A stretch of DNA of 64,000 nt from Mayamaea pseudoterrestris (taxonomy: Eukaryota), in assembly GCA_027923505.1 (NCBI GenBank), contig BROI01000010.1:310001-374000 (forward strand), written 5' to 3'. The translations under genes and the position numbers were made by a program. Shown one piece after another: positions 21,520 through 63,564 of this stretch; the first letter of the stretch is position 1; every line of letters starts with the position of its first letter. Under the pieces are notes generated by a model that worked only from the letters and a program-made list of their open reading frames with translations, did no database searches and was not told the origin of the DNA.

Positions 21520-23105
21520 TTAGTAGTAAAATCGACGGTATCTTGGTACCTCCTCCTCAATAGGCTCCTCCTCCTCTTCCAAAGTGACTGGCGAGCTGGT
21601 TTCCGTCGTGATCACTTCTTCCGCAGGAAGGATGCCCTTCTTCTTCTTAGCATTCTTCTTCTTGTCCTTCTTATCCTTCTTGTTCTTCATCATTCTCTGT
21701 GGCTCCTTGCAAACATCTCCCTTGATCTTTTTGGCCACCTGGAGGCGACGTTTCATTCCCGCCTTGGCGCCCGGGCCGCCTGGGCCTCCCTTGATCTTCA
21801 TGCCCTTCGTGTCTCCCTTGATTTTCATTCCTTTGGCACCCTTGATCATCATCATGTTACCCTTTGGCACTTTCATGCCGGTGGGGCGAGGAGCTCTAGT
21901 AGGAGCACAAGTTGGGCGAGGACGCATCGTCGGGCGCATGGTTGGGCGCCTTGTTGGACGCTAAAATGTTGAAATGGTAGAGAAAAGTTGGGTCAGCAAT
22001 GGTCAAGCAAGACAGCTAACAATAAAACCTTTGAACATGTGTACGTACCATTGTCGGTCTACGGGTCGGCATCATGGTCGGGCGACGAGTAGGCATCATC
22101 GTCGGGCGACGAGTAGGCATCATCGTTGGACGACGAGTGGGGCGCATAGTCATCGTCGGTCTACGCGTAGGAGTCTTGGTAGTAGGTCTGCGAGTCGGCA
22201 TCATGGTCGGACGACGCGTAGGAGCCCTGGTCATCTTAGGTCGCTACGATTGATTAAAAAGATACTGGGTAAGTACTGTGTTTCCACGAAGAAGAAAGAA
22301 CAAATAATTATGCAACGCACCTTCGTCGGATTCGGAGTTGGCATTCCAGTAGGACGCTTCGTTGGCCTCATTGTTGGACGTTTGGTCGGGTTTGGAGTTG
22401 GCATGCCCGTAGGACGCTTCGTTGGCATCATTGTTGGACGTTTGGTTGATGGAAGAGTTGGTCTTGGAGTTGGACGCTTTGTAGGGCGAAGCGTGGGCAA
22501 CTTTGTCGGATTTTTTGTAGGCACCTTTGTAGGTCGTTTCGTCGGGGTTTTGGTTGGAGCTTTCGTTGGCCTTTTGGTTGGAATTTTGGTCGGAGCTTTC
22601 GTTGGTACTTTGGTTGGCGGACGAGTTGGAATGCTGGCGCTTCCAGGAGGCAGTACCGACCCACTGCTGATGGGAGGAGGCACAGCGCCGGATGCGCTGC
22701 TGAAGGGCGGGACGACCGACGCGCTACTAATGGGCGTAGGGACGGCACCAGACGCACTGTTGAAAGGCGTCGGCACAGCTCCTGATGCACTGTTGAAAGG
22801 AGTTGGTACAGCTCCTGACGCGCTGCTGGAGATGGAGGCAGCTCTTCCTTCTCCATCCTCGACTGGCGGAATACCGAATTCGTCAAACAACCGGCCAGCA
22901 AGGGCACGAGCATCCTGTGCGTTGCAGTAGAAAAGGGAGAATTAGATGTAAGCCATTGTCCCAAAGATGTCGGTCGTTACGCAAACGATGATTTGATGTT
23001 TCGTACCATTGTCTCCTGCACCTCTTCTTCCATATTGGCTTCCGGAACTCCTGCGGATTTCGCAGCCGCCAAGAAACTTGCCACGATCAGCAAAGAAAAT
23101 TTCAT
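21520..23105 (-). CDS. Secreted Pro/Thr/Lys/Arg-rich repeat protein with RXL motifs; exons 23105-23007, 22914-22321, 22243-22049, 21960-21520
   Basis: Signal MKFSLLIVASFLAAAKSA; DARALAGRLF; SASGAVP repeats; many PT(K/R)RPT repeats; K-rich tail with KRRLQ; three phase-0 GT-AG introns join the ORF fragments. Confidence 0.82.
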
Positions 23106-25812: not shown

Positions 25813-27093
25813 CTACTCGTTTCCACAGTTCAGTCTTTCCTGTAGTTCTCTTGCCAAGTCGCTATCAGATCGTAGTAATGCGCCTTGAGGTAATTTCAAC
25901 AAGACAGGTTCCACTTCGTCAAGTGTAAATTCCGTCTTTTTCATCATTTGGAAACCTTCCTGCAGCTTCTTGCTGGAGGGAACGCGTTGGGGCACAGTGT
26001 CAAAAAAGACGGATGAATTATCCTTTTCCCAGGTACGTAACAATAGCGCCATGTGTTGTCGAAGATCATCCAAATCCTTTTGCATCACCTTGAGAATGGG
26101 ATTGCGAGCCACGTCGGGAATTCCGGGAGCTGCGTCTGACTCTCGAGTCCTTAACGCGACGGATGCTTCCGACATGAGGGCAATAGCGATTCCATACTCG
26201 CACGCATCCCAGAAAGCCCGCGCTTGAAAATACAAACTCAAGGACTTTTGCACGTTGATTTGAAATGTGGTGAGTGTGAAAAACTCCTTGTCCATGCGTG
26301 CCATTTGCACGTAGGCATCGCGACGAAGCTGGCTGACAAACTCCTCCAACTGATCCGCCACGCCAAGACATAGCTTGCCAAGCAGTGAATAGTTTGGTGT
26401 ACCAGGCTTAATAAGAACAGTAGCAATTGCCATTTGCTGTCCATTGGCCATGAATAAATTAGCCAGAGCCTTTGCCATGGCAGCATGACATTCACTCGGA
26501 AGTTGCTGCTCGTCAACCGATGAGCCCTTGCTGATCCACTTTGGCAGCAAATCCTCAGACAAGAAGGTAAAGATTCCAGCTGCAGCCGCATAGTCTCTTG
26601 ATGATGCTGCAAACTCGCCTTGCACCGAATTCTCTGTTGCGCTAGTAACCTTTCCCAGTCCCTCGCTGACAACCGTCATGACCAAGTCGTACATGATTGC
26701 CTCCGACTTGAAAGACTGTGGAGACTCTTCCACACCACTTTTCCAGCCAAACACCAATCTCTCATTCAATTGAGCTTCTTCTGGTTGGACTTTGCAGGAA
26801 AGTAGAATTGTATTGATGATTGGTTGAAAGCGTTTGGCTTCCGAAATAACTCGTTCCGATGATGTCCGTTCAGCGTTCAAGGCATCATACAACCGGCCGC
26901 GTACATCATCGGCATTTAGCATGAGTTTACGAGTCTTGTCGGCCTGGCCGGCAGTCTTGAAAGACTTGGCGAAACTGACCTGTCGATCCATCTTGGGAAC
27001 CTTGAAGCGATGAACGGCGCACGCCAAACGGATGCAGCTGTCTGGATGGTCAACGTTTGGTCCAGTGTGATCTCTGTAAAAGATATTTGACAT
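25813..27093 (-). CDS. BRO1-domain protein (ESCRT-associated, BROX/Alix-like)
   Basis: LVFGW, AAAGIF.FL, YGIAIA and EKDNSSVFFDTVP, typical of the BRO1 C-terminus. Confidence 0.82.
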   Translation of the reverse strand: MSNIFYRDHTGPNVDHPDSCIRLACAVHRFKVPKMDRQVSFAKSFKTAGQADKTRKLMLNADDVRGRLYDALNAERTSSERVISEAKRFQPIINTILLSCKVQPEEAQLNERLVFGWKSGVEESPQSFKSEAIMYDLVMTVVSEGLGKVTSATENSVQGEFAASSRDYAAAAGIFTFLSEDLLPKWISKGSSVDEQQLPSECHAAMAKALANLFMANGQQMAIATVLIKPGTPNYSLLGKLCLGVADQLEEFVSQLRRDAYVQMARMDKEFFTLTTFQINVQKSLSLYFQARAFWDACEYGIAIALMSEASVALRTRESDAAPGIPDVARNPILKVMQKDLDDLRQHMALLLRTWEKDNSSVFFDTVPQRVPSSKKLQEGFQMMKKTEFTLDEVEPVLLKLPQGALLRSDSDLARELQERLNCGNE

Positions 27094-38149: not shown

Positions 38150-38494
38150 ATTACTGTTTCGCCAGCTGTGATGCAATATGTTGCGAACCGCACCGATGAA
38201 CAAATGCCTTTCATCCCATGGTGAAGGAATGACGGAACGAATGAAGCGTTGAATCTGTCACAAAGTCGCAACGGTACACGATGCTTCGCGCCAAGTCGGG
38301 CAGTCCTGTCTGAGCAATTCAAAAAGGTATCTTCAAATCGTGATAAGAAAAGTTGCTTAGCAGATAACGACGCTTCTGGCGCCGGGCCGACCAGTAACGT
38401 GTGCACTATTCGACCGATTTGAAACGTCGCCAACTCATCACAACATCATTGATCCACTCAACGACCATTCATCCACTTTCATAATCATTCGACC

Positions 38495-40229
38495 ATGAAG
38501 CTAGCATCCGCCGCCTGCATTTTCCTCGCCACTTCCGTCGCTGCCTTTCGCCGTAATATTGGTGATGACCATGACGAGGCGCGTCGCCTCTTTGCGCGAC
38601 CGCCAGAAAGTCCAGACAGTGACGGACGAATGCTTGCAAGCGGCTCTGGCAGCTTTGTTCCACCAATAGCGAGCGGCAGTGGCAGTGGATCTGTTTCGGT
38701 AAAAGGTATGTTGAGTTGTAAGTAAATGCTGCAGAGTAACGAATGGTATTTCCTCATCGCTCGTCTCGCTTCGCAGGGTCCAAGTCTAGCAAGGGAAAGG
38801 GTGGCAGTAAAGGTACGCATGCTTGAGAAAGAGCGAGTCTCATTGTTTCAATCTATACAATACTCACGCGTCGGCTGTCTTCCATTATATAGCTTCAAAG
38901 GGTAAGGGATCACCAAATGCATCCAAGGGAAAAGGAGGCGGCAAAGGATCAGCCAAAGCAAGCAAGGCAGGATCGCATGAGCATCACAGCCAAGGAAGCG
39001 GGTCAGGTGCTTCTGGATCCATTGTACATGGTTCTGGATCCGTCGATATGTCAGTCGCCGGATCTGGTTCCGTAGCAAGTTCTGGATCAGTCGTCATGAC
39101 CTCTGGCTCGGTCGTCGCTGGATCTGGATCCGTCACCACTTCCGGCTCTGTCATGGTAGATTCTGGATCCGTTGCGGCATCATCAGGCTCAACCATGTCT
39201 ACTGGCTCAGAATCTGTTGCTTCTGGATTTGTCATGGAAGCATCAGGTTCGGGCATGTCTTCTGACTCAGGTTCAGTCGATTCGGGCTCAGTTGTCGCGT
39301 CATCAGGGTCAGTCATGTCGTCGGGATCCGTCGTTGTCGATTCTGGATCTGTTGCATCTTCTGGCTCTATGGCAACTTTGGGATCCGTCGCTTCCGGTTC
39401 AGTGGCTACTTCAGGATCTGGATCAGAAGCCACTACTAAAATGGCTGATTCGTCTGGCTCAGTCGCTCATGGTTCTGGATCTTTTCACGACAGCAGCGCG
39501 TCAGGTTCCGCCGCAGCGGCTGGTTCTGGCTCCATTCACGTCGCTTCCGGCAGCCGCTTTGTCGGTGGCGCCAAGGGAAGCAAGGGTGGTTCTAAAGTTA
39601 GCAAAAGTGGAAAGGGCAAGGGCGGCTCCAAAGCTAGCAAGAGTGGAAAGGGCAAGGGTGGCTCCAAAGCAAGCAAAAGTGGGAAGGGGAAGGGCTCGTC
39701 AAAGTTCAGCAAGAGCGGAAGGGGCAAGGGCGGTTCAAAGGAAGCATTCCAGCAATCCGGATCAGGCTCTACAAACGTGGGGTCTGCATCATTCCAAACT
39801 GGATCATCCAGCTTTGAGCATGGACGTCAACTCGGTTCATCATGTCAGAAAATTCCTATTTTCTTTTACGTCGAAGATCTTAAGGCCAAGTTCAACAAGA
39901 CGGATGTTGGCGGTTCTTTCAACAAGGCACCATTCTACTACAAGGATACGGGCGATTTGCTCGGTTACTACACCGACAGTTCTACAAGCTTTGCCGATGG
40001 TGATTGTGTCGGAACTGGGACGTTTTCCTTCGGCAAAACTAAACCATACCCCAGCCAGATATCGGTCCAGTTCACATGCACGGGTCGCCAAAACACCATC
40101 ACCGGCGGAAACGGTGACTTTGGCTGCGCCAATGGTCTTGAAATATTCACGTTTGATGACGGCGTCATTACAGAGAGTGAGCTGCTCATTTGCCGAGACC
40201 TTTGTCCGTTTCATCAATGGACGCGCTAG
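38495..40229 (+). CDS. Secreted modular protein: RXL motifs, SGS-rich and KGGSK/KSGK-rich repeats, C-terminal Cys-containing dirigent/AOC-like domain; exons 38495-38705, 38777-38812, 38893-40229
   Basis: Signal MKLASAACIFLATSVAA; RRL, RML and RQL motifs; C-terminal NTITGGNGDFGCANG. Confidence 0.82.
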
Positions 40230-46122: not shown

Positions 46123-46771
46123 GTGATCGAGGGTGAGAAGGCAGGCAGCACAAATGCGTGTTGTTCCTTGCCACAGCCACCAGTCAACTTGGGTTGCGAA
46201 AATTATGTCATGCTCTGTGCTGATACATAAGTGGAAGATCCGAAAGACTGCGTTCAGAATCGTGTAAACGAGAGTGTCTTGACTCGAGTCGTTTTAGAAT
46301 GAAGCCGGACTTTAGAATGATGCCAATGCTGCACCACCGGCGCAGGTGAAGCAAAAGACCACTGCCTCGGTTTTCCATTAACGAAACCAGCTTCAAATGC
46401 CTGATAGTCGAATCAACTTGGCATAGCTTGACCGACTCGACGAATTCGTCCATGAGTCCTCATCCATCTCCGTTTGCGCAACTCGACGAAAGAAAAAGCG
46501 AAACCGAAGACAATCATGTCTTACCGGTTACCATGGCATAAGCCCCAAAGTGTCAGGCAATATTAAATAAAGCAAATCTTGCTATCGGAAAGAATCTTTG
46601 CTAAAGTACTTAGGTAGCGTGACCTTCAACGGAAACATGTTCGAGCCAGCCGAGATGCCGCATCGTCAACTTTGGCCTCTCGAAAATATTTTGAAACAAC
46701 TCGTCGTCCCCGTGTCGAATCGAAGGAGAAGCGAGACAGCCTTCGACCATCAACTCTCGAAAAAGTTCACC

Positions 46772-48228
46772 ATGAGGCTTTGTAATCGGCGGCGAACGCT
46801 GCTAGTGAATCTGCTATTACTTTGCGCAACCGTGGCGAGGAGTCTTGAAACAGAGACGACACAATCGGATCTTGACATTCGCGCGACAAGCCTGCAAAAT
46901 GACAGACGGTCATTGTTCATGTCACAGAAAGAACATGAAAAGTCTTTGACAGTATTAGAAGAGCTGCGGCAGCACGTAGCCACAGATCGGCAAGCCTCGC
47001 TGCACTTGGACAGTCGAGATTTGCTTCGACTTCGCCGCGCGGACGCTGCCTCGTTCAGTCACTTTTTTCGATCGCTGCTCCAAGCCGACACTAACGTCAA
47101 AGCTAACTCGGAGCATCGGAGAACCAAAGAGCACGGAAACATTTTTTCGCGAGTAGCTCCTGTAACAAAAGCTCCTGTCTCAAATGCTCCTCCGCCAAAA
47201 GGAAGCAAGAAGGGCAGCAAGGTTGACAACAAACTGGCTAGTAAGAGCAAAGAGTCGAAAGGCAGCGCTAAAAAGATAGCGAAAGGAGGCAGCAAAATTA
47301 CAATTAAAGGCACCAAAGGTAGCAAGGGATTAAAAGGACGAGGCATGAGTAAGGGTCTTAGTAAGAGCCAGGCGCCGAGTAGCAAGCGAACAAAGGGCGT
47401 TAAGAACGCGAAAGGCAAAATTACCAAAGCTATAAAATCCCCCAAGGGCGTCAAGAGCACCAAAAGCAAGGTATCAAAAAGCATCAAAAGCGCAATAGGC
47501 ATCAAGGGCATCAAGGATGCGACGCCTAGCAAGTCTACGAAAGGCATGATGAAGGAGAAGGGCAGCAAGAAAACGAAGGGTTTGAACAGTTCAAAAGCAA
47601 TCAAAAATGCAAAGGGAATCAAGAGTGCGAAGAACACCAAATTGAGCAAAAGTAAAGGTACCAAGGCACCAAAAGGTTCCAAGACTGGTGTTGTCAGTAA
47701 CATTATGAAAGGCGCAAGCAAAGGTTTGAAGGGTGGCGATGACAAAACAGCCAAAATCAGCAAGAAGGAAGTCGTTGCCGGCGGCAATCAAGGCACTGAA
47801 AACGTTGATGACGCTCCCACGAGTGCGCCAAAGCAATCAACTTCATTGACAGAAGCGCCTATACTAGTACTGACCATCGCGCCTCAGACTGTCGACACTC
47901 GAACTCCGTCGGAACGTCCAACACGGACACCAACAGTGCCCACCTCACCACCCACCAGAATACCTACAACACCTTCGCCGACAGGTGCACCAGTAATCCC
48001 GACGGATAGTCCAACACGACCACCGACTGTACCGACTCCACCACCAACACGATCACCGGTGAGTTAAAAGTTCACGTAGTAAAGTTATTGTGTCATCTGG
48101 CGAAGGTGTTAATACTCACAATTTTCATTTCACAGGCTTCAGTTGATTCGCAAGCTCCGTCATCGCAACCTGCATCCATCGACTCCCTCGCACCCGCGGC
48201 CGCACCAACAGCGCAAGTAGTACGATAG
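46772..48228 (+). CDS. Secreted Lys-rich (KxxK) and Pro/Thr-rich protein with RXL motifs; intron 48059-48135
   Basis: Signal ...LLVNLLLLCATVA; RSL motifs; ~190-aa KGSK/KGxK-rich block followed by PT repeats. Confidence 0.8.
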
Positions 48229-55031: not shown

Positions 55032-56618
55032 ATGAGCCAGTCGCTATCATCCTCCTCCTCCTCTCTTGAGGCTGCCAACATTGAGCTTCCCGGCGACGAA
55101 GAAGACAGTGACAACTCGGAGCGGCGAGCGAGCAACTTGCAGCACAATAATTATCCAACGATGCTGCGCGAGCGTCTAGCGGAGCCCGGAGCTGGTATTT
55201 TAGCAGCTGATGAAAGCGAAACCGACCTAATGCTACTTGATGACTGGAAAGTGACTCATAATACGGAATTTGATGACGACGCTCCATTTCTGGGAGACGT
55301 TGTTGAACCCGAAGCGGCTGCTGCCTCCACCGCTGCTCGAGTACAGCAGACTAGCGCAATCGATAAAGCGCATAACCTTGCAGCTCCTACTGTCAATAGT
55401 ACTGATAATTCCGCTGTTGCAGCTATAGGTCCATCACTGTCTTGGTCTCATCCTGAGAACGACGAGCAGGCACTAGAGGAAGTGCAAACTCCAACGTCAA
55501 AGAGTGCACCATGCACGCCTAGCAAAGTGCGCGGAAGGACGCTTCTATATGGTTTCATGCAGCCTGTTAGTATCTTGAGCAAAATGTCTCCAAATGAGAA
55601 GGATGAACGCGACATTGAAGCTGCCGATGCTATCGCCGGAACTCCTACTACGATTGACTCCAAGGACGAGGAGGGCCCCGCGTCCGAATCGGCGCTCGAA
55701 AAGGTTTCACCAACAGCCGAATCATCTCAACTTACCGACAAGCAGCGCAAATGCCGATACTGCGTCTGCATTGGCATCTTACTTGGGCTCTTGCTCATTG
55801 CGCTTGGAACGGGGCTGGGCTTGAAAAACAAGCAGCGAATGGAGTCGTCGTCACTAAGTGACAAGAGTAGTTCATCAAACAGCACCTTATCCGATGACGA
55901 ACTGGTCGAGCCTCCGTACAATTCGGCGCCGACCAAGGGGTTTCAAACGACGCAGGAACTCTACGATGCGGTGGATGTTTACCTGGCGCGGCCCATGTCA
56001 TCGGCAATTTACGATGTTGCTGCCACCTACGGATACCCAATCAACGAATGGCTGGTCGGTAATCTAACTCGATTCGATAACGTTTTTGCGGCTTCTCGGT
56101 CACCAAATTCAGTAAGCTTCAATGAGCCGCTTGACAAGTGGAACATGAGCAAAGCAGTCTCGCTGGCGTTCATGTTTGAAGGCGCTCTGGCCTTTAGCCA
56201 AGACTTGAGCGCTTGGGACACGTCCAACGTGCGAAACATGACGCGTTCCTTTGCAAATTGCCAATCATTTAACAAAGCACTCGATGCATGGACCGTGTCT
56301 CGAGTTGTAACCATGGAAGGCATGTTTCAATTAGCGACCAGTTTCAACCAGCCACTTGCCGATTGGAACGTGAGCGCCTGCGAGAATTTCTCGCGCATGT
56401 TCTTCAATGCAACGAGCTTTGCGCAAAATCTTTGTCTCTGGGGTGACACTATTGATGTTAACGCGAATGTCAGTTTAATGTTCGATGGGGCGTCAAGCTG
56501 TCCTGCTCGCTCCGAAACTCTAGATCTCGCATCAGGTGGTCCATTCTGCTCTTATTGCGGGAATTTACCGGGAGTGGAAGTACCAATTGAATTAAATACA
56601 ACCAGTGGGATGGCTTAG
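55032..56618 (+). CDS. Single-pass membrane protein with DUF285/BspA-like repeats
   Basis: TM CIGILLGLLLIALGTGLGL; repeats FNEPLDKWNMSKAVSLAFMF, FSQDLSAWDTSNVRNM and FNQPLADWNVS. Confidence 0.88.
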   Translation: MSQSLSSSSSSLEAANIELPGDEEDSDNSERRASNLQHNNYPTMLRERLAEPGAGILAADESETDLMLLDDWKVTHNTEFDDDAPFLGDVVEPEAAAASTAARVQQTSAIDKAHNLAAPTVNSTDNSAVAAIGPSLSWSHPENDEQALEEVQTPTSKSAPCTPSKVRGRTLLYGFMQPVSILSKMSPNEKDERDIEAADAIAGTPTTIDSKDEEGPASESALEKVSPTAESSQLTDKQRKCRYCVCIGILLGLLLIALGTGLGLKNKQRMESSSLSDKSSSSNSTLSDDELVEPPYNSAPTKGFQTTQELYDAVDVYLARPMSSAIYDVAATYGYPINEWLVGNLTRFDNVFAASRSPNSVSFNEPLDKWNMSKAVSLAFMFEGALAFSQDLSAWDTSNVRNMTRSFANCQSFNKALDAWTVSRVVTMEGMFQLATSFNQPLADWNVSACENFSRMFFNATSFAQNLCLWGDTIDVNANVSLMFDGASSCPARSETLDLASGGPFCSYCGNLPGVEVPIELNTTSGMA

Positions 56619-59759: not shown

Positions 59760-60333
59760 TGTGTTTGCTTTATTCTATACTATAGAGACGGTATGATAGC
59801 AGGTATGTCTGCAAAGAATTTGGACGAAATTCAAATAATGGACGGCCATCACCGCAGTACCGGTACGATGAACCATTGTCGAAAAAATCTCTCCCGTGGA
59901 CCAATGCGATACCACGCAAGTACTCATACTACTCAAGTACTTCCAGTACTCAGCCGCTGGCAACCAACAATGTGAAAATCGATAGTGGTTAAAGAGCAAC
60001 AGTAGCTGATAAATGACGACCCACGCGAGGGTCTAAAAAAATACGTACTTGTACTGCGTTTTACAGTACTTCTCGAGTACTTTTCGATATTCAGACCCAC
60101 AACATGGTGGTGTGTAAAGCGAAAGTGGTCAAAACATCACAGTAGTTGATAAACGGTTGTCATTATTGAGTGCAAACGCGGCTAGCGCGTTGTGATTAAC
60201 ATCTTTTATGTAAGGTACGTCAGCGCTCGCGATCTTTATTCAGAGAGAGAACCGAACAAAGCCCATCAGCAGCATACGCATTCCGGGTAGTGATACATTT
60301 CATGCGAACGACGACGGCTCGCGTCAAGCGGCT

Positions 60334-60936
60334 CTACTTGCGAAAGAATTTTGGCGCCTTGCTACCTTTTGGTCCTTTGCTGCCCTTGGTCTTGCTCCCT
60401 TTTGCGCCCTTGCTCTTCGAGCCATGCAGTTGACGTCTTTCGCGAAAGAATTTCGGCGCCTTGCTTCCTTTCGGGCCTTTCGGAGCTTTACTGCCCTTAG
60501 TTTTGCTTCCCTTTGAGCCCTTGACTTTCGATCCGTGCAGTTGGCGTCTGTCGCGAAAAAATTTGGGCGCCTTGCTGCCTTTCGGAGTTTTCGGACCTTT
60601 ACTGCCTTTGATTTTGCTGCCTTTAGCTTTAGATCCTTTCAGTTGGCGACGAAAGAATTTTGGAGCCTTGCTGCCCTTCGGTCCCTTACTACCTTTGGTC
60701 TTACTTCCTTTTGACCCTTTTAGCTGACGGCTGGTCTGCGAAAGCTGGCGAGCACCTCGAACCAGTTGCTGTGCTTGCTGCTCGACCTGACCACTGATGC
60801 GGCCCTCCTGAAGCTCGTTATCTAGACCTCTCGCGCCTTGATTTGTCGAGCAAGAAGCTCCAACGAGCAAAAGGAGGATTGTTAGGATAAGTTGACGCGG
60901 CATGATGAAGCTGGAGGTGGTGGAGGAGCTCGTCAT
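60334..60936 (-). CDS. Silaffin-like secreted polyprotein: four Lys-rich KGSK...APKFF units separated by RQL motifs (alternative start 60903)
   Basis: Signal ILTILLLLVGASCS; RGL and RQL pro-region; four units ending KGSKAPKFF; synonymous variation among DNA copies. Confidence 0.85.
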   Translation of the reverse strand: MTSSSTTSSFIMPRQLILTILLLLVGASCSTNQGARGLDNELQEGRISGQVEQQAQQLVRGARQLSQTSRQLKGSKGSKTKGSKGPKGSKAPKFFRRQLKGSKAKGSKIKGSKGPKTPKGSKAPKFFRDRRQLHGSKVKGSKGSKTKGSKAPKGPKGSKAPKFFRERRQLHGSKSKGAKGSKTKGSKGPKGSKAPKFFRK

Positions 60937-62703
60937 TCAAACAAATGTGTGAGATTTATAATGGATGCATGTGTGCTCGCTTAAAGAAGTGGTGGCAGGA
61001 TGGAGCTCGGATCGCTTGCACTCGTGTCGGCGAAAGATCCACATGGGCTTCTAAGTGTTTTAGTACCGGATACCTATATATGGTCTGTCTGACTCTCAAG
61101 CCGGCCGATGTCACACGCTTCATTAAATGCCACCATGTGCCCAACTTTCCGAACGACCATGCTAATTGCACATTAGCGGTTGTATAGCGATCATTGCAAG
61201 TCAGAACACGTGGTATCGGCCCAACTGGTGAAAAATGGGATGTAAGCGAAAGATACAAGATTGCAGCGGCACCCCAACGCCACCGCATGCTTGCCGTCAG
61301 TCCGAGGTGCGAGCCTCGAGCCTAGCGAGGAGCGAAGGGCGAGGAATTCTTGGTGAAATGATGGTCCGAGCCATGCCATTTTTCCCTTCCCTGTTTATGC
61401 GCAATGAATGAGCATCACCACGCATGTGTTTTGTGTATGGCTGTCCATCATAGCCGCGTCATCGCCGCATCACTATAGCCTGCAGCTTGAGCATACATCT
61501 GTTCGAGACCAACAAAGGTCAAGAGTCCCAAATAGAAGATAGTTCATCCATGGAATGGTGGTAGGCGACACGACGCGCCACCTTTTGAAAATTACGATGG
61601 CGACTTGTTGCATGTGTCCTCCAAAGATTCATAATTTGCTAGCTGAGAGGATGTGGACCTGCTACCTGCTACAGTTCAGAGGAAGGAGGAAGGGCATCGA
61701 CTCCATGCTATATCAAGCACAACTCCTCGTTCTATGTTTCCAGATGCATTGGCGAGATAGTGTTGCAGATGGTGCAAGCTGCAAGCCCATCATGCGCCAT
61801 TAAATTGCTACGACTTTATACTATTTTGCCTTAATATAGCTGCAGCGTTACCATTTTTAACGTCATTGCGCAGCGAGACCTTGTCTCTTATTGCATATCT
61901 AAAAGTCATCGCCCTACGGCTGGCTTACTTTGGAATGGCCCGGATAAATTTGCGAGAGAGGTCTGTAGTATCTTACAGGAGATTGACGTCACTGCGAAGC
62001 GCGTTGCAGGCTCATTAGTTGCTCCTTTTCCATTGCCGTCATCACTAAGTAATTTTGTTCATCAAGGCGGTGTCACGCAATCAATTGGTATTGAGAGGAA
62101 GCAAAAAGCATGGACTTGATGCGATGTTCGCCGATGTCGTTCTCTCTGTATGCTATTATAGCTTTGCCGCAACCGCTTAATGGATCGATTATTAGCCAGC
62201 TCGCATTCGTGCCTGAGCAGATTTTGTTAAACTTGTCAAATGAAAGCGGATGATAAAGATGTCGGCTGCCTCATCAAACCATAACTTCTGCTTCGCCTAA
62301 TAGCTGCTGCATGATGCATGCAAAAATGCAACGAACATGAAGGCACGGACAGATAGCAAAGTCACGACTGCTGCTCATTTTTACTGCTATTGCTTCGAAT
62401 ATCGCTGAAGCGTGGCCGAATCTTTGAGATCCTCCATGTTTGCATCATTTTTGACGTTTCTCAGCTCGAGAGTCGCGTACGAAGGATCGCTGAAACAAAA
62501 CCTTGGACGAGACAACATGGCTCGCCTCGCGCGCCATATTCATATTAGAAAACGTGTTCATGACACAAAAATCACGATACTTAAGTAGGCTCGCTTACAC
62601 AATTCAAGCGATCCAAAATTGGCGAGCTTTTCACCTTTTCTGTCAAAACTTCGCACCTCTAACATCTACACTTTCGATATTCGTCGCACAGCCAAGTAAC
62701 ACC

Positions 62704-63564
62704 ATGAAGTTTGCACGAACAGCGATTGCCTTTACCATCATGGCCATCTCGGCCGACGCCTTTAGCCGCGAAAAGACTCTAGAGCATTCCCAGGCAGGCG
62801 GTGGAAGATATCTCAAGCGCACGCTAGCGGGCATGACCACGGCAACTGGATCTGCGGCAACACCCGTTGCACCAGTGGCAGCACCAGTTGCGACAATGGC
62901 GCCGGTCATATCAGGGTCTGTGGCGGCGCCCGTCGCAGCTCCTGTTGCTCCTCCTACTCTCATCGCATCTGCATCCGTCGACACACCGATTGCAGCGCCC
63001 GTTGCTCCTCCTACTCCAATTGCATCTGCGTCGACTCCTATTTCTGGATCCTTGTCTGCCGTTACGGGCGGAGGCGACGGAGGAGATGGAGATGGTGAAG
63101 GTAACGTGCCAACGACATCGCCACCACCGCCAACGGCGGAAGCCTGCCGCACCATTCCCATTTTCTTCTTGAAGAGCGAGCTGACGGCCAACTATACGCG
63201 CTATGCTACTGGCGGAGGTTTCGACTCGGTGCCGTACTACAATGCCAACACGGGCGAGCAGTATGGTTTCTACAGCGACGAAGCAACCAACCTTGATTCG
63301 GGAGACTGCGTCGGCGGAGGTGTGTTTAGCTTTGGACCAACCATAAGCTACCTTGACCAAATCACCTTTTCCTTTTCCTGCTATGGAGCATCTAACTCTA
63401 TCACAGGAGGAAATGGTCGCTTTGGTTGCGCATCAGGCTACGAAATTTTCAATGCGGACGAGGTTGACCGCATCAGCTCCACCTTGTACTTGTGCGGAAC
63501 CCTGTGTCCGTACACTGGCCCCATGGATCCGGTTGCAACAACTCCTCGCACGGAAACGCCATAA
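62704..63564 (+). CDS. Secreted Ala/Pro-rich protein with RXL motifs and C-terminal dirigent/AOC-like domain (paralog of 38495-40229)
   Basis: Signal MKFARTAIAFTIMAISADA; RYL and RTL; APVA repeats; CRTIPIFF...GDCVGGGVFSFG...NSITGGNGRFGCASG...LCP. Confidence 0.83.
   Translation: MKFARTAIAFTIMAISADAFSREKTLEHSQAGGGRYLKRTLAGMTTATGSAATPVAPVAAPVATMAPVISGSVAAPVAAPVAPPTLIASASVDTPIAAPVAPPTPIASASTPISGSLSAVTGGGDGGDGDGEGNVPTTSPPPPTAEACRTIPIFFLKSELTANYTRYATGGGFDSVPYYNANTGEQYGFYSDEATNLDSGDCVGGGVFSFGPTISYLDQITFSFSCYGASNSITGGNGRFGCASGYEIFNADEVDRISSTLYLCGTLCPYTGPMDPVATTPRTETP

Follow-up and report, generated by a model that had tools for sequence, protein, structure and literature searches.

The gene described here lies on the reverse strand of a 64,000-nucleotide stretch of contig BROI01000010.1 from Mayamaea pseudoterrestris, referred to as the window, to which all positions relate. 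Its maximal open reading frame (ORF) is intact and ends with a TAG stop at 60334-60336 (Table 1). The encoded product consists of a predicted signal peptide, a pro-region and four Lys-rich units punctuated by R-X-L tripeptides (RXL); beyond the signal peptide and the pro-region there are repeats only and no other domain. To judge from the sequence, we are dealing with a real gene of a raphid pennate diatom, made up of a single exon and under constraint at the protein level. By analogy with known silica proteins it may encode a silaffin-1-type precursor of polycationic peptides in the form of a secreted polyprotein, a reading to which we give an even chance.

Structure of the gene and its product

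All four units start with [K/H]GSK directly after RQL and end with KGSKAPKFF. The architecture proposed in an earlier note on this DNA, namely a signal peptide, a pro-region and four units each preceded by RQL, is exactly what the translation of the ORF gives. That note had placed the start at the first ATG, which is in frame with the second and would add only 11 polar residues. Since the two closest homologues (P0002 and P0003, see below) begin with MPRTLILALLMLLGGASCS (MPRTL...), the start was corrected, and the second ATG at position 60903 is most likely the true one, yielding a protein of 189 residues that begins with MPRQLILTILLLLVGASCS. The pro-region is present and short, as had been stated, but it contains two further RXL sites, RGL and RQL.

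The endoplasmic reticulum (ER) signal peptide expected of silaffins was predicted heuristically from a hydrophobic core whose Kyte-Doolittle mean over 9 residues reaches up to 3.5 and behind which small residues (GASCS) stand, from a helix at residues 3-17 in an AlphaFold model and from its conservation in P0002 and P0003. In the same model, the pro-region forms helices at residues 23-32 and 36-62, while the four-unit repeat region appears as coil with block values of the predicted local distance difference test (pLDDT) of 48-62. As the model was built from a single sequence and hence weighs little, it is weakly consistent with disordered repeat units. At the DNA level, Tandem Repeats Finder detected an array with a period of 111, 2.3 copies and 82% matches. 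A gene on the opposite strand or in an alternative frame was considered and rejected, the sole overlapping ORF of at least 40 codons being one of 43 amino acids (aa) on the plus strand.

Table 1. Coordinates of the polyprotein gene and its parts (window positions; pI, isoelectric point).
Feature	Position	Strand	Remarks
Maximal ORF (P0001)	60334..60936	-	200 codons and TAG
Likely coding sequence from second ATG	60334..60903	-	189 aa, MPRQL...; supported by the starts of homologues
Predicted ER signal peptide, residues 1-19, MPRQLILTILLLLVGASCS	60847..60903	-	hydrophobic core, modelled helix, conservation
Pro-region, residues 20-61	60721..60846	-	Lys-free; RXL sites RGL, RQL and RQL; modelled helices 23-32 and 36-62
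Unit 1, KGSKGSKTKGSKGPKGSKAPKFF	60652..60720	-	23 aa, 8 Lys, calculated pI 10.85
Linker RRQL (RXL site)	60640..60651	-	
Unit 2	60556..60639	-	28 aa, 10 Lys, KGSK start
Linker RDRRQL (RXL site)	60538..60555	-	
Unit 3	60445..60537	-	31 aa, 10 Lys, His start (HGSK)
Linker RERRQL (RXL site)	60427..60444	-	
Unit 4	60343..60426	-	28 aa, 9 Lys, His start (HGSK), then RK and stop

Lysine pattern of the repeat region

In the literature on diatom biosilica, KXXK is proposed to be what lysine-modifying enzymes recognize, and for RXL a role as a general endopeptidase site has been put forward, with frustulins, cingulins and silacidins being named (PMC4557024), cleavage being placed C-terminal of the Leu (bioRxiv 10.1101/518332). 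Pentalysine clusters, in which a stretch of 12-14 residues contains five non-consecutive Lys, are of importance for silica targeting (PMC5501833, PMC9650480). One screen combined a signal peptide with repeated K[SG][SG]K motifs that are one to six residues apart, and PT repeats have been reported in silaffin-like proteins (both PMC5501833).

The protein studied here contains 26 KxxK and 15 K[SG][SG]K motifs, the latter at residues 62-179, as well as seven RxL and, by the above definition, 22 pentalysine windows. It shows the KXXK and pentalysine arrangement of Lys that is counted among the traits of silaffins, and it passes the above-mentioned screen, with 10 of the 14 gaps between successive K[SG][SG]K falling into the one-to-six range and four being zero or above six. 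Each unit comprises several windows with five to six non-adjacent Lys in 12-14 residues. When the repeat region of 128 aa was shuffled 20,000 times, a count of 26 KxxK was never attained, nor were there ever as few as zero KK pairs or as many as three RxL[KH]G, and four FF occurred in only seven of the shuffles. The lysine/RXL pattern of the repeat region is therefore more than chance. Both observations made earlier on this point proved correct, i.e. the occurrence of KxxK motifs as in diatom biosilica proteins and of a Lys at about every third residue: 26 of the 37 Lys-Lys intervals are 3 and seven are 2, and unit 1 alone has eight Lys in 23 residues.

Constraint on the coding sequence

Each unit has a conserved head of seven codons and a conserved tail of 13, and these blocks were compared in all six unit pairs, with the proportion of synonymous differences (pS) ranging from 0.37 to 0.88 and that of non-synonymous differences (pN) from 0 to 0.09. 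In the tails (78 codon pairs), 30 synonymous and three non-synonymous differences were counted, in the heads (42 codon pairs) 24 and four, respectively. Pooled over heads and tails, pS is 0.69, pN 0.052 and pN/pS 0.075, values in which pN is biased downwards because the blocks were chosen for gap-free alignment. Even with this bias, the pooled ratio upholds the earlier suggestion that the synonymous differences between the copies reflect selection on the protein. As the nearly saturated synonymous sites show, the repeats are old and have been kept by selection at the peptide level rather than stemming from recent DNA duplication.

Public contigs of four runs (X1 to X4), which belong to one study and have no library kind on record, cover parts of the ORF, for example by a piece of X4 (60428-60935) and pieces of X3 (60304-60899). 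Over the ORF, the contigs of all four runs carry a second haplotype or strain. Among the 40 differences that were listed out of 111, seven fall into the ORF, six of them being synonymous and one changing Pro to Ser. Contigs of X1, X2 and X3 also show an in-frame deletion of six bases at position 60621 in unit 2. None of the runs holding the ORF is recorded as RNA. Contigs were found in 29 (X1), 28 (X2), 15 (X3) and 14 (X4) of 30 bins, and the deepest contigs of X3 and X4 are located at the ORF and at a second gene (62.6-63.5 kb). Such a distribution would fit RNA, but nothing is concluded from it, as holes and depths of contigs were not taken as evidence and the stretch has no intron by which RNA and DNA could be told apart. 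In the 3' flank of the gene, 232 bases at 59884-60117 are missing from one X1 contig. Inspection by eye showed this region to contain a stretch of about 115-120 bases in two similar copies, and the skip is probably a copy-number difference between haplotypes.

Host and annotation

The diatom origin of the DNA, presupposed by the silica interpretation, is borne out by a 426-aa ORF at 25813-27093, which is identical at 400 of 420 positions (95%) to the M. pseudoterrestris protein GKY98485.1. The only two named relatives of the polyprotein are hypothetical proteins of this species, too, which is a freshwater pennate diatom (PMC9724779). A non-silicifying host, which the earlier note had named as a finding that would speak against its interpretation, is thus not at hand.

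An exact look-up of the ORF in protein collections, made with both start forms, gave no hit, and neither a word-indexed search nor the exhaustive HMMER search returned the protein itself. The collections in question thus have no annotation of the gene, which suggests that short low-complexity biomineralization genes are easily missed by annotation. The same look-up with six further window ORFs showed three (426, 241 and 538 aa) to be NCBI proteins; those of 476, 393 and 334 aa were absent as typed, probably owing to differing gene models. For the polyprotein, Pfam yielded only a meaningless best match (E=0.22; E, expectation value) and the ESM Atlas no usable match. In the main texts of an open-access library, six strings from the peptides were found in no diatom paper, and one of them, KGSKGSK, matched only four unrelated papers on engineered linkers and host-defence peptides. 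Two supplementary files of the Mayamaea paper do not mention the locus tags of the paralogues. The precursor had been called new, and this applies to the gene and its peptides as far as the searched protein collections and print are concerned, but not to the kind of molecule, which is already known.

Relatives and the role of RXL

An HMMER search for relatives, suggested earlier as a check, was run against 1,835,955,588 representative sequences and produced four matches at E<=0.001: P0002 (ENA, 266 aa, E 2.8e-13), P0003 (ENA, 140 aa, E 6.2e-13), P0004 (Mayamaea, 167 aa, E 1.5e-11) and P0010 (JGI/IMG, 383 aa, E 7.6e-08). The word-indexed search added the weaker P0005 (Mayamaea, 204 aa, E 5.6e-3). 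An alignment of the polyprotein with P0002 and P0003 has 56 invariant columns, 28 of which lie within residues 1-61 and hence ahead of the repeats. Because the non-repetitive signal peptide and pro-region are common to the three proteins, P0002 and P0003 can be regarded as true homologues. All members share a core that ends with ...KG[ST]K.PK.SKAPK. What follows the core differs, since the units end with FF, GKGKGG (P0002) or KRN and are found with or without acidic spacers.

The polyprotein, P0002, P0003, P0004 and P0010 were cut in silico after every RxL. The resulting pieces fell into a Lys-rich class of 27-81 residues with 27-40% Lys and a net charge of +10 to +22, and Lys-poor spacers with 0-10% Lys and a net charge of -5 to +1. 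Two Lys-bearing C-terminal remnants, RKA in P0004 and one of 10 aa in P0010, belong to neither class. In these five proteins, all 18 Lys-rich pieces start immediately after an RxL; P0005 fits the splitting less cleanly. In P0002, P0003 and P0010, the basic pieces are closed by RRDL or RNRDL, which is followed by an acidic spacer. In the M. pseudoterrestris gene, where RXL sites stand at all four unit starts, the spacers between the units have shrunk to 0-2 residues, so that one RXL would serve two adjoining units, as a review describes for the silaffin precursor Sil1p. The unit boundaries assigned to RXL in the earlier note thus recur in the relatives, and this conserved punctuation is the best available, albeit indirect, indication that the units may be excised.

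Metagenomes were also scanned. An alignment of all six proteins contained no stretch of sufficient conservation to serve as a pattern. Patterns derived from the polyprotein alone gave 468 matches but no relative. With the three-protein alignment (KGSKGPK patterns), 10 loci were obtained, nine of which were judged to be low-complexity matches in other proteins; among these nine are four of one Cys-domain protein type, one that is collagen-like (L010) and one with in-frame stops. The remaining locus (L005, 109-1056 on the plus strand of its contig) is the sole one that combines a signal peptide, RRQL and a Lys/Pro-rich region (KGPKAPKGPKSPKGPK...), which is followed by a long Ser/Thr/Pro repeat tail. 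It is no polyprotein, but another candidate silaffin-like protein, from a eukaryote.

Comparison with known silica proteins

Silaffins are bound tightly to biosilica and come free upon its dissolution in ammonium fluoride or hydrofluoric acid (PMC4220933, PMC4557024). As silaffins of different species are described as showing no sequence similarity to one another (PMC4557024), membership in this group is biochemical. Sil1p of Cylindrotheca fusiformis is a protein of 265 aa with a signal peptide (residues 1-19), an acidic domain (20-107) and the basic repeats R1-R7, whose RRIL or RRNL ends are missing from mature silaffin-1A/1B (PMC4557024). Set beside Sil1p by description and not by direct sequence comparison, the Mayamaea protein is likewise a small secreted precursor with a 19-residue signal peptide, a Lys-free pro-domain and tandem basic units rich in Lys, Ser and Gly, which are bounded by R-X-L (RRIL/RRNL in Sil1p and RRQL/RDRRQL/RERRQL here). 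Both proteins have KXXK clusters including the tetrapeptide KGSK, which is part of R5 as quoted in the earlier note. On the other hand, the Mayamaea protein has four units instead of seven and a nearly neutral pro-region of 42 residues instead of an acidic one of 88; it lacks Tyr and KK, contains less Ser, and possesses Pro and the invariant APKFF. At the sequence level, the proposed correspondence to the silaffin-1 precursor, consisting of signal peptide, pro-region and RXL-delimited Lys-rich repeats, nevertheless agrees with what is described for C. fusiformis (PMC4557024).

Similarities to other proteins are more restricted. Strings such as KGSKGSKTKGSK resemble KSGKGSKSSGKSGK and KSGKGSSSKGSKGSSKSSK of the pentalysine clusters of Thalassiosira pseudonana silaffins and the Lys-enriched regions of cingulins (PMC9650480), but there the clusters are embedded in large, otherwise non-basic proteins, whereas here they make up nearly the whole product. 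Cingulins are moreover described as alternating KXXK regions with Trp- and/or Tyr-rich ones (PMC4557024). Such regions are missing from the 189-residue protein, which contains neither Trp nor Tyr, and a cingulin identity was ruled out for this reason. A nuclear, histone-like Lys-rich protein was likewise ruled out, in this case by the predicted signal peptide. The silacidin precursor of T. pseudonana is also highly repetitive and gives rise to many short peptides by proteolysis, for which RXL is named (PMC4557024), but silacidins are acidic (Asp, Glu and phospho-Ser) and thus of opposite charge. Siliplant1 (Slp1) of Sorghum bicolor resembles the Mayamaea protein as a secreted, disordered protein with basic Lys/Pro-rich repeats, some of which end with RXL (bioRxiv 10.1101/518332). 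It comes, however, from a plant, its repeats are composed of three parts, with His/Asp and Pro/Thr/Tyr domains among them, and there is no sequence relation. Since an unmodified Lys/Pro-rich peptide of Slp1 precipitates silica in vitro in a Lys-dependent manner (bioRxiv 10.1101/518332), in vitro silica activity of the Mayamaea peptides is plausible even without modification.

A possible route to silica-associated peptides

If the protein is a silaffin-1-type precursor, it would enter the ER co-translationally and lose its signal peptide. A diatom RXL-specific endoprotease would then cut after the Leu of each RXL, releasing the Lys-free pro-peptide and four disordered polycationic peptides of about 23-31 residues, for which 27-33% Lys, a calculated pI of approximately 10.9, a charge of +8 to +10 and a mass of 2.3-3.1 kDa are predicted. 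The C-terminal R or RRQL remnants might be trimmed as in Sil1p, leaving ...APKFF. The regular KXXK/pentalysine clusters could serve both as sites of lysine methylation or aminopropylation and as silica-targeting signals, and Ser residues could be phosphorylated. [quoted passage not shown] We infer cleavage, trimming, modification, the location in the silica deposition vesicle or frustule and silica activity alike from the analogy to known systems, and the silica-peptide interpretation of the earlier note is in this sense partly supported.

The terminal Phe-Phe deserves a separate assessment. It is indeed present in all four units, as had been noted. Within the family, however, it is confined to this protein and to P0004, where it occurs once (...APVFF-ERAL) while the other unit has a single F, and apart from its presence nothing supports the role in self-assembly that had been proposed. 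That FF drives self-assembly is thus speculation, and mature peptides ending in FF would depend on the putative R/RRQL trimming. In the synthetic R5 peptide, the RRIL end is reportedly required for assembly and activity, and a hydrophobic C-terminal end might stand in for it here. A far-reaching version of this idea, which we consider doubtful, is that the peptides are functional analogues of silaffin-1A with surfactant-like properties, combining a polyamine-modified polycation with an FF tail. Aromatic stacking instead of phosphate cross-linking would then drive a self-assembly serving as template for the silica nanopatterns of naviculoid freshwater diatoms, and the 'SKAPK' polyprotein family would be a lineage-specific silica toolkit missed by annotation.

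Alternative explanations

A number of observations weigh against a silaffin-type precursor. No match in the word-indexed search was named silaffin (the HMMER library carries no names). Four of the five relatives (P0002, P0003, P0005 and P0010) lack FF, so that it is no hallmark of the family. The screen of Scheffel, as quoted in PMC3478156, required a signal peptide together with minimum contents of 18% Ser and 10% Lys per 100 residues. Ser accounts for 14% of the repeat region, and the best window of 100 residues holds 15 Ser and 28 Lys, so that the Ser threshold is missed and the Lys threshold exceeded. The absence of Tyr and of KK pairs differs from the R5 peptide quoted in the earlier note. 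The similarity of P0004, P0005 and P0010 lies in low-complexity repeats and could partly be convergent, and the mostly unrelated larger proteins from the metagenome scan show that composition matches arise easily. Everything said about function beyond the sequence is analogy, and not every Lys-rich protein secreted by a diatom is a silaffin. The Amphora coffeaeformis protein AC3362, for instance, is a cell-wall matrix protein which is not solubilized by ammonium fluoride (PMC4220933). It is conceivable, though unlikely, that the Mayamaea protein belongs to this category and is kept largely whole like AC3362 or a cingulin, with Lys clusters that target or anchor it to the frustule or the organic casing and RXL sites that at most free the pro-peptide. 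The Lys-enriched regions of cingulins influence frustule targeting (PMC9650480), Lys-rich AC3362 resides in the ammonium fluoride-insoluble matrix (PMC4220933), and other secreted Lys-cluster proteins in the window carry larger domains as well. The protein itself has no domain besides the repeats, however, and lacks the Trp and Tyr of which cingulins have entire regions. In addition, RXL flanks every Lys-rich piece of the relatives on both sides, with acidic, Lys-free spacers in between, a layout that would make little sense without excision of the pieces.

Excision by itself does not point to silica, since RXL processing is not limited to silica proteins and has also been named for frustulins (PMC4557024). 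The released polycations might cross-link or condense anionic polysaccharides of mucilage, raphe adhesive trails or the organic casing, for which a charge of +8 to +10 and an aromatic end would be suitable and to which the life form of the nearest named organism, a raphid pennate freshwater diatom (PMC9724779), lends some credit. We regard such a role as unlikely, because the motif content fits the definitions of silica targeting, literature searches revealed no diatom adhesive of such a composition, and the Lys-rich adhesive candidate of Amphora turned out to be a cell-wall protein of the insoluble-matrix type and not a silaffin (PMC4220933). Host-defence (antimicrobial) peptides released from a multi-copy precursor are a very improbable explanation. 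High positive charge and several copies per precursor would suit them, and host-defence peptides, unlike diatom proteins, are among the printed matches to KGSKGSK; apart from FF, however, the units are composed of Gly, Ser, Pro and Lys, have no amphipathic or hydrophobic face and are modelled as coil. Diatoms are not known to possess an antimicrobial multi-copy peptide system of this kind. Hardly credible is a non-functional sequence, whether an ORF that arose by chance across low-complexity repetitive DNA or a copy in decay. Its absence from protein collections in which three of six other window ORFs are present would agree with this, as would the fact that no run holding the ORF is on record as RNA. 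The intact frame, the low pN/pS between units with nearly saturated synonymous sites, the predominance of synonymous allelic differences (six of seven listed), the in-frame indel and the conservation of signal peptide and pro-region in P0002 and P0003 contradict it.

With the silaffin-1-type precursor as the preferred reading, the significance of the gene lies in its design. The single multi-copy precursor of short polycationic silaffin peptides that is described in the parts of the review at hand is sil1 of C. fusiformis (PMC4557024), and because silaffins of different diatoms are dissimilar, each new precursor must be found by its architecture. Judged by their layout, the Mayamaea protein and its relatives would be a second, independent example of Lys-rich peptides excised at RXL, in this case from a freshwater raphid diatom with a small genome. 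The peptides are short enough for synthesis and for detection by mass spectrometry, and the differing ends within the family (FF, GKGKGG and KRN, with or without acidic spacers) provide a natural comparison for the contribution of the non-lysine end. The current understanding is unchanged unless an association with silica is shown.

Other genes in the window

Further secreted proteins with Lys clusters are encoded in the window, which is consistent with a genome in which frustule-type genes abound, but is no proof of anything regarding the polyprotein. At 38453-40229 (plus strand) lies what is probably a two-exon gene. Its first exon specifies a signal peptide-like stretch (MKLASAACIFLATSVAA) and RRL and is followed by a gap, a long Ser/Gly-rich region with Lys clusters (KGSKGGSKVSKSGKGKGGSKASK...) and a Cys-containing C-terminal domain of about 130 aa. 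The product has no Pfam match and looks like another silaffin- or cingulin-like candidate. The gene at 62560-63564 (plus strand) is arranged head-to-head with the polyprotein gene, the starts being about 1.7 kb apart, and is covered by contigs of X1 to X4. It encodes a signal peptide-like stretch, an Ala/Pro/Val-rich region and a C-terminal Cys domain which is clearly paralogous to that of the gene at 38.5-40.2 kb (CxxIPIFF...GDCVGxGxFSFG...ITGGNGxFGCAxGxEIF). Pfam gave no match for it either, and ESM Atlas feature scores of 0.77-0.83 to dirigent or allene-oxide-cyclase-like barrels can only be taken as a lead.

A 476-aa ORF at 46637-48067 (plus strand), also without a Pfam match, has an internal signal peptide-like stretch (MRLCNRRRTLLVNLLLLCATVARS), RRSL, a Lys-rich region that spans about 200 residues and is packed with KxxK, and a tail rich in Pro and Thr. 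The 528-aa ORF at 55032-56618 (plus strand) matches Pfam DUF285 ('Mycoplasma protein of unknown function') in two stretches (E=2.9e-41), an unexpected family name for a diatom gene. Finally, a 139-aa ORF at 21520-21939 (minus strand), which as listed contains no signal peptide, comprises MKIKG-type Lys repeats and a KDKKDKKK stretch and adjoins a 318-aa ORF at 21974-22930 (plus strand) made up of VGRFVG-type repeats.

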